A program made the translations under genes and the position numbers. From assembly GCA_017881315.1 (NCBI GenBank), contig JADGRB010000001.1, positions 12,564 to 76,563 on the forward strand: a DNA stretch of 64,000 bases, written 5' to 3'. This DNA is from Pseudomonadota bacterium (GTDB lineage: Bacteria > Myxococcota_A > Polyangia > Fen-1088). Below are positions 887 to 11,371 of the stretch, one piece after another; within the stretch, counting starts at the first letter, position 1; the number at the start of each line of letters is the position of its first letter. The notes under the pieces were generated by a model that was not told where the DNA came from, made no database searches, and saw only the letters and a list, made by a program, of their open reading frames with translations.

Positions 887-3800
887 GTGGATCAGCAGTC
901 GAAGCAGGGCCAGGGCCACGGTAAGCGGAAGAAAGACGAAGAGGCGGCTTCGAGCGGCAACGGGGCCGGCCACGACGATTTTCCGGCCGAGCTGGCCGCC
1001 CAGAGGAAGGCGGCCGCCGAGGCGGAGAAGGTGTCGGTCGAAAAGGGGATCGACGCCTGGAAGAAGATCGTGGCCGCCGCCCCGACCGCCTGGGCGCCGC
1101 GCCGGGAGCTGGCGCGGGTCTACAAGAAGGCCGAGCGCTGGAACGCCTTCATCGAGGTGATGAAGGAGGGCCTCGAGAAGGCGACCTGGCCCACGCCCGA
1201 GGACAAGATTCCCGTCCTGCGCGAGATGATCGAGGTCTATCGCGATCGGCTGAAGCTCGACGTGATGGTGGTCAACGCCTTCAACCAGATCCTGACCATC
1301 CAGCCCACCAACTTCGAGGCGGTGGACGAACTGGCCGCGCAGTACGAGGCGATGAAGCGCTTTCCGGACCTGATCGCGCTCCTGCGCAAGAAGGCCGCGG
1401 TCGTAGAGTCCCCGGCCGAGAAGGTGACGCTCCACCTGCGGGTCGCCAACCTGTTCCTCGAAAAGCAGAACCAGGCGGAGGCCATCAAGGCCTACGAGAC
1501 GATCCTGGAGCTCGATCCCGATCACGACGACGCGCTCGCCTTCGTCAAGCAGATGTACGAGAAGCGCCGCGACTGGGAGAAGCTGGTCGCCGTCAACCAG
1601 CGCGAGATCGAGAAGATCACGGACGTCGACGTCCGCCGCGCGCGTCGCATCGAGGTGGCCAAGCTCGCCTCCGAGAAGATGAAGAAGGCGGCGGTCTCGA
1701 TCGACCTTTGGCAGAAGGTGCTGGCCGACGAGGCCGGAAACCTCGAGGCGCTGACCGAGCTCGAGAAGCTCTACGAGCGCGAGAAGATGTGGGCCGAGCT
1801 CGGGGCGGTGCTGGAGAGCCAGGTGGCCGCGGCGTCCGATCCCGCACGCAAGTCCGCGATCTACGTGAAGCTGGGGATTCTCTACACCGAGAAGGTGCAG
1901 AACGCCGCCCAGGCCACCGCGGCCTGGCAGGCGCTGCTGCAGCAGGAGCCCGAGAACCGGCGCGCGCAGGACGCGCTCAAGAAGCTCTATCTCCAGCTCA
2001 AGGACTGGAACGCGCTGGAGGGATTCTATGCGGCGCAGGGGAAGTGGGATGAGCTGGTGCGCGTGCTCGAACGCCAGGCCGAGTCCGAAGACGACGCCGC
2101 GCGGGTCGACCTGTGGAACAAGATCGGCGAGATCTACCGCGACCGCCTGAACAAGCCCGATCGCGCTCAGAAGGCTTACGAGAAGACGCTCTCGTTCGAC
2201 GCCCAGAATCTGCCGGCGGCCGAGGCGCTGATTCCGCTCTACGAGAAGAGCAAGGACGTCAGACGCCTCGCCGACGTCCTCTACGTCGAGCTGAACCACA
2301 CCCGCGATCCGGCGGAGCGGCCGGCCCGCATGCGGCGGCTCGCCGAGCTGCTCGACATGGGCGCCGGGGACAAGGCCGGTGCGCTGCGCATGGCGCTCAC
2401 GGCGCTCGGCGAGGCGCCCAACGACCCGTGGGCGATCGCGACCTCGCGACGGCTCGCCCAGGAGAGCGGGGGATGGGCGGATCTCGCCCAAGCCTACGAA
2501 ACCGCGGTTTCCCGGGCGGACGATCCCAAGGCGCTGCTGGCGCTGCTGGGGACCTTGGCGGCCGCCTACGAATCCCAGCTGGGCAGCCCGGAAGCGGCCA
2601 TCGAGCGCAATCAGAAGATCCTGGAGCTCGCGCCCAAGGATCCGGAGGCGGTGGGCGCGCTCGAGCGTCTCTATGTCGCCACCGGTCGCTTCGCCGACTT
2701 GCTGGCGATCTACGACCGGAAGCTGGAGCTGGCCAAGACCCCGTCCGAGCAGCTCGAGATCCGCTTCAAGCTGGCGTCGCTCTACGAAGAGGAGATCAAG
2801 CAGCCCGACAAAGCGATCGATCTCTACCTGGCGATCCTGAAGCAGGATCCGTCGCAACAGCCCGCGCTGGCCGCGCTCGACAGTCTCTATCAACAGCTTG
2901 GACGCTGGAAGGATCTGGCCGAGACGATCGAGCGGGAGATCGATCTGGCGACCGAGCTGTCGGACGTGGCCAAGGTGGCCGAGCTCAAGTTCCGCCGCGG
3001 GGCGATCCTCGAGCAATATCTGGAGGACGCCGCCGGCGCCGTGGCGTCGTATCGCGAAGCGCTGGGGCTCGAGCCCTCGCACGTGGGGGCGCGGACCGCC
3101 CTGCAGGCGTATCTGTCGAGCAGCGACGCCGAGCAGCAGCAGGCCGCCGTCGAGGTGCTGGAGCCGATCTACGAATCGGCCGGCGACATCGCGCGCCTGG
3201 TCGAGGTCCAGCGCATCAAGCTCTCGCACGAGAAGAAGACCGCCAAGCGCGTCAATCTGCAGCTGCGGATCGGCAAGCTCGAAGGACAGCTCGGGAACAC
3301 CGACCAGGCCTGGGAGGCGTACACCCGCGCCTTCGCCGAGGATCCGGGCTCGCTGCCGGCGCGCGAGGCGCTGGAGAATCTGGCCAACGTCCTCGACACC
3401 TGGCAGCAGCTGGTGGCCCTCTACGAAAAGGCCCTCTCTGGCAAGGGGAAGGAGAAGCTGGCGGCGCCGCTCGAACGCGAGCTCCTGCTGGTGGTCGCGG
3501 TGGCGTACGACGAGAAGCTGGGACACTCGGACCGCGCCGTCGAGTACTTCCGCCGCGCGCAGAGCATCCAGCCGGAGGACGCGTCGGCGCTGGTGGCGCT
3601 GGAGCGGCTCTACACCCGCACCGAGCGGTGGAGCGATCTGGTCGACACCCTGCTCAAGAAGGCGCAGCTCGTCACCGACGCGGCGGAGCGCGAGGAGATC
3701 CGGACCCGCATCGCCACCGTCTGGGAGGAGATGCTGGGGAACGCGGAGCAGGCGATCGTGGCCTGGAACGTGGTGTTGCAGGACAACCCGGCCAGCGTGC

Positions 3801-11371: not shown

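Follow-up and report, generated by a model that had tools for sequence, protein, structure and literature searches.

What does a bacterium do with a single protein of 3,494 amino acids, and is such a protein real? The question is raised by an open reading frame (ORF) of about 10.5 kb in a 64,000-nucleotide stretch of myxobacterial DNA (the window). The ORF lies at positions 887 to 11,371 of the forward strand (to which all coordinates below refer), starts with GTG and is read without interruption. An earlier, sequence-only reading described it as a long tetratricopeptide repeat (TPR) array and as a rare giant scaffold that could serve motility, secretion or development. Here we find that the ORF is real, that it is one gene and that it is under purifying selection. 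Judged from its sequence and relatives, the product (396 kDa, pI 5.05) is in all likelihood a cytoplasmic TPR scaffold orthologous to GltI (AgmK, MXAN_4863), in an uncultured myxobacterium of the class Polyangia.

An ORF of this size could result from faulty assembly or annotation, or could be several ordinary TPR genes that have fused and are now decaying, and the sequence-only reading had itself pointed to frameshifts as the alternative. Some long-read assemblies do split related loci into three to five gene calls, and a search for homologous proteins gave only fragments of 800 aa or less. However, about 40 of 56 loci in other genomes hold one open frame of 3,460-3,550 aa, or a frame that stays open to the start of the locus (at least 3,650 aa). 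These intact loci come from independent, mostly short-read assemblies, and the broken ones are mostly found in long-read ‘MFD’ assemblies or contain Ns. The 800-aa ceiling holds for every search match and looks like a property of the index. Genuine short versions of the family were also considered and rejected; on long contigs, the short proteins turn out to be fragments of frameshifted giants. In the window, GC3 stays at 0.89-0.94 throughout the ORF in a single frame. Against a 97%-identical relative, dN/dS is 0.075 overall and between 0.02 and 0.11 in each 500-codon block. Moreover, the start codon and ribosome-binding site (RBS) are kept in relatives, and 28 orthologues align across 3,300 residues with zero indels. 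An artefact is thus left with a negligible probability. No exact match to the window protein is on record, and the names of homologue clusters are uninformative (‘tetratricopeptide repeat protein’, ‘golgin subfamily B member 1’).

The gene also has the signals of an independent transcription unit. The window opens inside a small TPR lipoprotein gene, of which the 3' part is present (3..698; Pfam TPR_2/TPR_8/TPR_11). One residue distinguishes this fragment from its orthologue in a close relative (L088), whose giant has the same length as that of the window (3,494 aa) and is 97.2% identical to it in protein and 94.6% in DNA. Full-length orthologues of the small protein (about 290-305 aa) open with lipoprotein signals (...LALVLPAC, ...LGLIIPAC, ...LSLLAGC). 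The preceding gene does encode a TPR protein, as first described, but these signals point to an exported lipoprotein and not to a second cytoplasmic scaffold. It is followed by an intrinsic-terminator-like hairpin (742-778) which, with its T-tract, spans 742..788. The hairpin has a 16-bp stem with nine GC pairs, a loop of five and the tail ATGTTTTTAG. RNA folding of 699-800 gives -50 kcal/mol (z = -3.4), and the 3' arm and T-tract are kept in close relatives.

Downstream of the terminator lies a CGTG[C/T]TATAAA box (CGTGTTATAAA; 799..809), which contains an extended -10-like element (TGnTATAAA, 801-809). This AT-rich box is invariant in 12/12 aligned relatives with N-terminal protein identities of 65 to 96%. 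A simple sigma-70 consensus scan returned no -35/-10 pair, so it is from conservation and motif that we infer a promoter element here. Further along, a candidate leader (5'-UTR) hairpin, CTCCGTT...AACGGAG, occupies 827..853. RNAalifold, applied to eight relatives only, gives it a 7-bp stem with compensatory double changes in two pairs (CG to UA, CG to AU/GC), which weakly suggests a conserved structure. Finally, the RBS GGAGGAG (876-882) and the GTG start (887-889; the element as a whole 876..889) sit in GGAGGAGC and GTGGAnCAGCAGTC, both invariant in 12 relatives. A terminator-like hairpin, the AT-rich promoter-like stretch (initially placed at ~803-814) and the good RBS proposed from the sequence are therefore all present, as is the arrangement expected of a separate unit: below the terminator, the gene carries a conserved promoter-like element and an RBS of its own.

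The protein itself begins with a variable Lys/Gly/acidic tail (residues 1-35; 887..991) that reads MDQQSKQGQGHGKRKK..., M being read from GTG, and is Lys/Gly-rich as described. It is the least conserved part of the protein (conservation 0.27, gaps 33% in a 28-orthologue alignment), and in other lineages the N-terminus carries 400-650 extra residues. The N-terminus is hydrophilic, and the giant has neither a signal peptide nor a transmembrane (TM) segment; KD exceeds 1.6 in just one 19-residue window, inside the folded C-terminal domain. The tail is followed by 43 contiguous 72-residue double-TPR modules (residues 36-3166; 992..10384). Only TPR-type Pfam families match the giant (e.g. TPR_7 at 1e-71 and TPR_8 at 3e-65), with TPR_1/2/6/7/8/14/19 far over their gathering thresholds, in agreement with a true TPR array that lacks a catalytic domain. 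Autocorrelation peaks at 72 residues (z = 7.0) with harmonics and shows no peak at 34-36, and the module consensus combines a canonical TPR of 34 aa with a variant TPR of 38 aa. The array is therefore built on a two-repeat super-unit. That is, the repeats were rightly called TPRs, but their unit is the 72-residue double TPR (34+38) and not the simple 34-residue repeat. A profile built from the giant itself tiles residues 36-3166, every domain at E < 1e-8, and yields ~86 helix pairs, close to the ‘roughly 90’ first counted.

Structure prediction agrees with this picture. The AF2 model of residues 1316-1781 (pLDDT 92.6) is all-helical and stacks with no linkers. In Foldseek, the best matches of this central segment are the TPR superhelices of OGT, SPINDLY, CTPR and APC/C. 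HEAT and Sel1 repeats were considered and rejected, as Pfam assigns TPR families and the structural neighbours are TPR superhelices. The regular tiling is broken by four long modules. The first (91 aa, five helices; residues 700-790; 2984..3256) bears the motif VEVLEPIYESAGD and keeps its position in orthologues; the other three are 89 aa long. The second lies at residues 1011-1099 (3917..4183; LLEPIYKIRGDW), and the third (residues 1388-1476; 5048..5314; VLEPIYESAGEW) and fourth (residues 1621-1709; 5747..6013; VLEPLYRAGEEW) each show five helices in AF2. The spacing of the four is identical in all orthologues.

The family is not rare, contrary to the first impression of this locus. It is very probably the known GltI/AgmK family and is found in at least 311 species-representative genomes; the best 80 of the 311 loci all belong to Myxococcota, Polyangia or ‘Myxococcales’ metagenome-assembled genomes (MAGs), or to unclassified proteobacterial MAGs. 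Orthologues align to the window protein as single colinear HSPs over ~3,450 residues at 34-92% identity, and a 28-sequence alignment is gap-free from module 3 to the end, ~3,300 residues without indels. Together with the spacing of the long modules, these sequence comparisons indicate that the relation is orthology and not loose TPR similarity. Recent expansion of the repeats was rejected: modules within the giant share a mean identity of 23.5%, against 34-92% between colinear orthologues in a gap-free alignment. The 43 x 72-residue modules, the four five-helix modules at fixed positions and the ~3,300 indel-free residues across orthologues 34-92% identical appear to be absent from the published accounts of GltI that were consulted.

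C-terminal to the array is an alpha/beta domain of non-TPR type (residues 3167-3494; 10385..11368), predicted with high confidence. Such a C-terminal part had been noticed from the sequence, but it measures 328 aa and not ~290. The last ~378 aa of the giant have no Pfam match at E<=1, and sequence and profile searches of the domain in Pfam, NCBIfam and PDB assign no family; in PDB, the profile matches only through the TPR columns of the alignment. The predicted structure resembles zincin proteases of the M48 type (Ste24p/ZMPSTE24, BepA, the BlaR1 sensor domain and Geobacter Q74D82), the similarity being moderate and covering about half of the domain. This resemblance opens the possibility that the giant is an enzyme, in which an active metalloprotease domain would act on substrates recruited by the TPR array, as in BepA. 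BepA combines an M48 protease with a TPR domain. However, neither HExxH nor HxxEH occurs anywhere in the giant protein, and the domain has no candidate metal ligands. The helix expected to bear HExxH reads EKDLAYVIGKRLTF, and the family consensus there has no His and no Glu. The domain also differs from the M48 zincins in lacking sequence similarity to them, in being cytoplasmic and in its position C-terminal to a TPR array. An active protease is consequently very improbable and was rejected. The model favours a fold that resembles a protease but lacks catalytic residues; its basic loop, HKDWGLKRKDRRD, is conserved. A zincin-like C-terminal domain without HExxH, and its recurrence in SIR2- and kinase-TPR proteins, also seem to be missing from the GltI descriptions consulted.

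What links this protein to gliding is its neighbourhood. The 5' edge of the window falls within the gene that precedes the giant; gltD-G are not included, and synteny with these genes is thus read by proxy through L088. In L088 and in L090 (giant 93% identical to that of the window), four same-strand genes lie directly upstream, followed by the TPR lipoprotein gene and then the giant. The first encodes a TPR protein about as large as GltD (~1,180 aa). For the second, the best match is NCBIfam gliding_GltE (4e-37), and the third scores 86.6 bits with gliding_CglF (cut-off 90). The match of the fourth to gliding_GltG covers the model from one end to the other (7e-128, positions 2-649 of 650), and the same protein carries an AgmX/PglI C-terminal domain over its cut-off (110.8 vs 40). 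The GltE, CglF and GltG models are the best matches of these neighbours but remain under the NCBI equivalog cut-offs, as expected for another class of Myxococcota. Four lineages more distant than L088 share the same order (D-E-F-G, with the lipoprotein gene between the gltG-like gene and the giant); it recurs in L083, L087 and L139 and around the distant members P0124 (56% identical overall), P0262 (34%) and P0269. NCBIfam holds no GltI model. The window giant was shown to be colinear only with metagenomic giants, located in glt clusters, and its link to the studied GltI is therefore drawn from neighbours, architecture and published descriptions.

In those descriptions, GltI/AgmK is a TPR protein of 3,822-4,132 aa without signal peptide or TM segment (PMC3169522 Table 1, Tables S1/S3; PMC11761067). 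Its TPR solenoid is followed by a substantial non-TPR C-terminal domain (PMC11761067). The gene comes after gltD-H in the G1 cluster and is restricted to Myxococcales (PMC3169522, PMC11761067). In M. xanthus, Stigmatella and Anaeromyxobacter, gltJ (agmX) lies immediately 3' of gltI (PMC3169522). In the remaining 52 kb of the window, none of the 30 other ORFs scanned with NCBIfam matches gltJ or another Agl-Glt gene, and no GltJ model match is seen downstream of the giant in L083, L085, L139 or L140. The five contexts examined include no gltJ-adjacent member. Adjacency to gltJ is a feature of the Cystobacterineae locus and not of the protein family.

Downstream of the window giant, by 43 nt, stands a housekeeping gene, that of RNase Y (TIGR03319, 3e-114). 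Its position bears on a further explanation, namely that the giant is a paralogue of the GltI type, or a cytoplasmic scaffold of a general kind, with no part in the gliding machinery; one version would have it work with RNase Y, e.g. as an organiser of an RNA degradosome or membrane domain. RNase Y also follows the giant in L001 and L002 and is three genes downstream in L085, where the giant is 35% identical. In addition, the giant does not adjoin gltD-G in L085 and L140, and some MAGs have two loci with the C-terminal domain (e.g. L022, L061). Against this, the adjacency to a housekeeping gene is lost in L083, L139 and L140, and in the lineage of the window one and the same giant gene adjoins RNase Y and closes the gltD-G cluster. 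Whether or not they lie in a glt cluster, orthologues are colinear and have an identical module architecture, and a published survey found GltI to be single-copy, with no paralogues in Nfs or other Glt-like clusters. We therefore regard a role outside gliding as improbable and retain the GltI assignment. The scaffold function proposed from the sequence holds; among the three roles once offered for it, motility is the best supported. Given that the window gene marks the 3' end of an Agl-Glt gliding cluster, the organism very probably glides as M. xanthus does.

How could such a protein work? Published genetics in M. xanthus show that GltI is recruited to focal adhesions and is needed for gliding, and AlphaFold predictions give it multivalent contacts with GltG and GltJ, through their FHA and GYF domains, respectively (PMC11761067). 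By analogy, the giant gene would be expressed from a promoter of its own as the last member of a gltD-gltE-gltF-gltG-(TPR lipoprotein)-gltI cluster, with a cytoplasmic product. The 43 double-TPR modules of this product would then stack into a single, very long solenoid without breaks, closed by a globular domain, and form a platform of fixed length beneath the inner membrane. The trans-envelope machinery would dock its cytoplasmic domains on this platform (in M. xanthus, GltG FHA and GltJ GYF), clustering several motor/transducer units at a focal adhesion site. The four five-helix modules and the catalytically dead zincin-like domain may be docking or geometry-setting elements.

We also put forward, tentatively, a stronger reading that is possible, although we lean somewhat against it: GltI may act as a ruler of fixed length, and not as a loose scaffold, with the long modules as kinks or docking sites and the dead zincin-like domain docking a peptide or the membrane through HKDWGLKRKDRRD. 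It draws on the 43 individually conserved modules and on the absence of indels across the phylum. The C-terminal domain would then be a previously undescribed family common to SIR2-TPR and Ser/Thr-kinase-TPR proteins. If true, the length and kink pattern of one protein would encode the geometry of a bacterial focal adhesion. Whichever reading is preferred, GltI is the least understood cytoplasmic component of the gliding machine, and the constraints described here (an exact 72-residue grammar, four invariant five-helix modules, absolute length conservation and an inactive protease-like domain reused elsewhere) offer concrete targets for testing how it organises motor units. In addition, the C-terminal domain is a conserved handle by which GltI can be recognised in metagenomes, in which gene prediction often breaks it into pieces.

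Set beside known systems, the array is most like the TPR domains of OGT and SPINDLY and designed CTPR arrays, which share the linker-free helix-turn-helix stacking of the central segment (probability 1.00 in Foldseek, with E as low as 7e-11). Those arrays have 8-16 uniform 34-residue repeats, whereas the giant has ~86 helix pairs in 43 units, four of them with five helices. Global TM-scores are only 0.2-0.3, and the long-range curvature thus differs. The C-terminal domain recurs, again after a TPR array, in SIR2_2-TPR and Ser/Thr-kinase-TPR proteins (P0160, P0183/P0274, P0204), whose copies are 36-41% identical along the entire domain (E 1e-61 to 1e-72). Unlike the giant, these are proteins of 1,600-1,800 aa with an N-terminal SIR2-like or protein kinase domain; the one gene context examined (L138) is not a glt context.

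The closest counterpart is M. xanthus GltI, compared here by description. The Cystobacterineae proteins exceed that of the window by 330-640 aa, the difference lying at the N-terminus as in other long members of the family. RNase Y takes the downstream position that gltJ has in M. xanthus. Upstream, no gltH is seen after gltG; where M. xanthus has gltH and the pseudo-ORFs MXAN_4864/65, a gene for an exported TPR lipoprotein is present. The M. xanthus transposon insertion agmV, immediately 5' of agmK, was read as a promoter hit (PMC3169522 Text S1), and the two genes are alike in having a probable promoter region of their own. Both proteins are cytoplasmic TPR giants of Myxococcota without signal peptide or TM segment, both end in a non-TPR domain, and both are encoded at the end of a gltD-E-F-G cluster (for the window, through L088).

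The window carries at 887-11371 (+) one open reading frame of 3,494 codons, which begins with GTG, keeps a GC3 of 0.89-0.94 in the same frame across all 900-nt blocks and matches only TPR-type Pfam families (e.g. TPR_7, 1e-71; TPR_8, 3e-65). This confirms the single uninterrupted TPR ORF noticed in the sequence-only reading. The product is a 396 kDa, acidic protein (pI 5.05) without export signals, and Pfam has no family for its last ~378 residues at E<=1. The non-TPR tail put at ~290 residues is indeed present, though it measures 328.

Family searches used the C-terminal 363 aa as a non-repetitive probe. 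It matched 257 proteins in one database (all fragments), 2,453 clusters at 50% identity in an exhaustive search (with the domain at the extreme C-terminus in all matches listed) and 311 loci among species-representative genomes, the best 80 of the 311 all being Myxococcota/Polyangia MAGs. Two homologue searches listed nothing longer than ~800 aa although the representative library has giants, and this should not be taken for a biological absence. An ORF split by frameshifts or stops into several ordinary TPR genes was an alternative. Among the 56 loci with sufficient upstream sequence, the frame in ~40 stays open over 9.3-9.6 kb (ORFs of 3,460-3,550 aa) or as far as the retrieved DNA extends (at least 3,650 aa), and the interrupted frames come mostly from long-read ‘MFD’ assemblies or from loci with Ns. 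Moreover, the giant of a near-identical metagenome locus (L088) is equally long and 97.2% identical as a protein, with a dN/dS of 0.075 overall (0.02-0.11 per 500-codon block). On this open frame and dN/dS we reject the several-gene reading. Long-read contigs call the giant gene as 3-5 pieces; since the frame is intact in short-read assemblies from related genomes, these breaks are presumably indel errors, and many false ‘short TPR proteins’ in public protein sets therefore derive from this locus. Broken loci include L001, L002 and many ‘MFD’ long-read MAGs (L006, L011, L016, L018, L020, L036, L072, L073).

The autocorrelation of the giant has a 72-residue period (z = 7.0) with harmonics at 144, 216 and 288, a second series at 72k+17 and no peak at 34-36. 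With an iterated profile, residues 36-3166 resolve into 43 directly adjoining modules, whose consensus is a canonical 34-residue TPR (LLLRLAEIYEEKLGDPEKAVEAYEKALQLDPEDL) and then a variant of 38 residues (EALAALERLYERAGRWEDLVEVLEKKLEVATDPAERVA). Four long modules (residues 700-790, 1011-1099, 1388-1476 and 1621-1709) contain a 17-residue insertion, an extra helix preceding the ‘VLEPIYESAGEW’ helix, and almost without exception occupy the same module indices in the giants examined, even in those only 34% identical, with spacings of about 311, 377 and 233 residues kept. An alignment of 28 orthologues has a gap fraction of 0.00 in nearly all modules from module 3 onwards, as far as the C-terminus, and is evenly conserved (0.46-0.64), with length variation confined to the N-terminus. 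The AF2 model of residues 1316-1781 (pLDDT 92.6) stacks 27 helices without a break; long modules contribute five each and the other modules four. In the PDB it most resembles TPR superhelices (OGT, SPINDLY, CTPR, APC/C), with probability 1.00 and low global TM-scores, which on this model places the array in the TPR class with a predicted curvature unlike that of the matched superhelices. The module grammar, invariant length and four special modules may interest gliding-motility specialists.

Generic TPR similarity could also make such proteins look alike. The window protein aligns with other giants in a single colinear HSP of ~3,450 residues, at identities of 92%, 77%, 63%, 59% and 56% (the last with P0124, inside a glt cluster), and family members of 3,800-4,170 aa, including P0262 from a glt cluster, are 34-36% identical to it; mean identity between modules inside the giant is only 23.5%. 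Judged by these alignments, the likeness among giants is orthology.

Upstream of the P0124 giant (3,479 aa) lie, in order, 1,170-aa TPR, 524-aa TPR, 94-aa, 754-aa FHA+TonB_C and 294-aa proteins, and P0262 (4,166 aa) and P0269 (3,939 aa) have the same upstream pattern. Gene order and sizes match gltD-E-F-G of the Myxococcus xanthus G1 gliding cluster (gltD 1,191 aa, gltE 471, gltF 89, gltG 640 with FHA+TonB; PMC3169522, Table 1, Table S1). That cluster ends with gltI (agmK, MXAN_4863), encoding a TPR protein of 3,822-4,132 aa with no signal peptide or TM segment (PMC3169522), and the window protein has the architecture described for GltI. Near-identical loci with upstream DNA came from scanning metagenomes with the giant's first 342 aa. 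In one (L090, giant 93% identical), the giant is preceded by a 1,181-aa TPR protein, an ORF best matching gliding_GltE in NCBIfam (4e-37), a 114-aa ORF that scores 86.6 bits with gliding_CglF (cut-off 90), a 743-aa ORF matching gliding_GltG end to end (7e-128) with the AgmX/PglI C-terminal domain above cut-off, and a small TPR gene (8814-9812). Distant glt clusters have the same NCBIfam pattern. L088 has the same gene set, and its small TPR protein differs by one residue from the fragment at window 3-698, the partial gene that bears out the claim of a preceding TPR gene. From this order and near-identity, the window is read as beginning just within the last gene before gltI in a gltD-E-F-G-(TPR lipoprotein)-gltI cluster. 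The giant is thus very probably the GltI/AgmK orthologue, studied GltIs being compared by neighbours, architecture and published descriptions and not by direct alignment. The giant ORF is real but already explained as GltI/AgmK.

On modelling we read the last 328 residues, with moderate confidence, as a putative catalytically dead zincin-like fold; a protease-like fold goes unmentioned in the published work that models GltI (PMC11761067). Sequence conservation in this domain peaks at a basic loop, HKDWGLKRKDRRD. It is also the C-terminal domain of SIR2_2-TPR proteins of ~1,618 aa and of a 1,772-aa protein kinase-TPR protein. These carriers (P0160, P0183/P0274 at L138 10001-14857, and P0204; ~1,600-1,800 aa) have an N-terminal SIR2_2 or Ser/Thr protein kinase domain and then TPRs, and glt context is absent in the one neighbourhood examined (L138). 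The domain is therefore not exclusive to GltI and, by its distribution, is a reusable module. A putative dead zincin-like domain common to other TPR proteins may also interest gliding specialists.

Ahead of the giant, the proposed terminator is confirmed as a terminator-like hairpin that spans 742-778, with 16 bp in its stem, a T-tract and a fold z of -3.4. The AT-rich stretch exists, at about 799-813 and not ~803-814; within it CGTG[C/T]TATAAA (799-809), unchanged in 12 relatives (N-terminal identity 65-96%), has the form of an extended -10 (TGnTATAAA). The RBS GGAGGAGC, which is present as noted, and the start GTGGAnCAGCAGTC are also unchanged in all 12, and this joint invariance supports the giant as an independent transcription unit. 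A parallel is the agmV insertion upstream of M. xanthus agmK, interpreted as a promoter hit (PMC3169522). A leader hairpin at 827-853 (CTCCGTT...AACGGAG; 7-bp stem, two compensatory pairs among 8 sequences) is a weak candidate for a conserved RNA element. A second predicted helix joins CCGATCC (865-871, helix arm 861-869) to the RBS/start region, a hint that the giant gene may be controlled at translation.

Elsewhere, the window encodes an OmpA-domain protein at 57019-58791 (-), another myxobacterial-type envelope gene, whose best NCBIfam match is TraB (4e-55, far under cut-off). TraB is the myxobacterial outer-membrane exchange protein. An inositol/CDP-alcohol-type lipid gene cluster (16224-24225 and 34540-37690) comprises HAD phosphatase, NTP transferase, inositol-monophosphatase/CysQ-like, CDP-alcohol phosphatidyltransferase, pgsA-like, cls-like and pssA-like genes; in L001 and L138, related genes (NTP_transf_3, Inositol_P, CDP-OH_P_transf) are found in the neighbourhood of the giant gene as well. 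Beside a distant gltI orthologue, L139 encodes an FHA-GAF-guanylate/adenylate cyclase protein (22171-23790, -) with a histidine kinase and response regulator, a second FHA protein adjoining a scaffold predicted to bind FHA domains.

The locus departs from that of M. xanthus on both sides of gltI, and the 30 other window ORFs scanned include no other Agl-Glt gene. Downstream, where M. xanthus has gltJ, an RNase Y gene (11414-12991; TIGR03319, 3e-114) starts 43 nt past the giant gene. The arrangement is repeated in L001 and L002, and in the distant L085 RNase Y lies within three genes of the giant; its proximity persists better than that of gltJ but may be just a conserved gene order. Upstream, gltG and gltI are separated in five lineages (window 3-698; L090 8814-9812; L087 8825-9709; L083 7773-8696; L139 8574-9476) by a conserved TPR lipoprotein gene, at the position that gltH and two doubtful ORFs (MXAN_4864/65) take up in M. 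xanthus. The lipoprotein, of about 290-305 aa, is exported, with an LPAC, IPAC or LAGC lipobox, and Hoch_5625 of Haliangium (296 aa, TPR, adjoining the FHA protein Hoch_5627) looks like its equivalent. This lipoprotein may be an unrecognised, lineage-specific periplasmic component of the Glt machinery.
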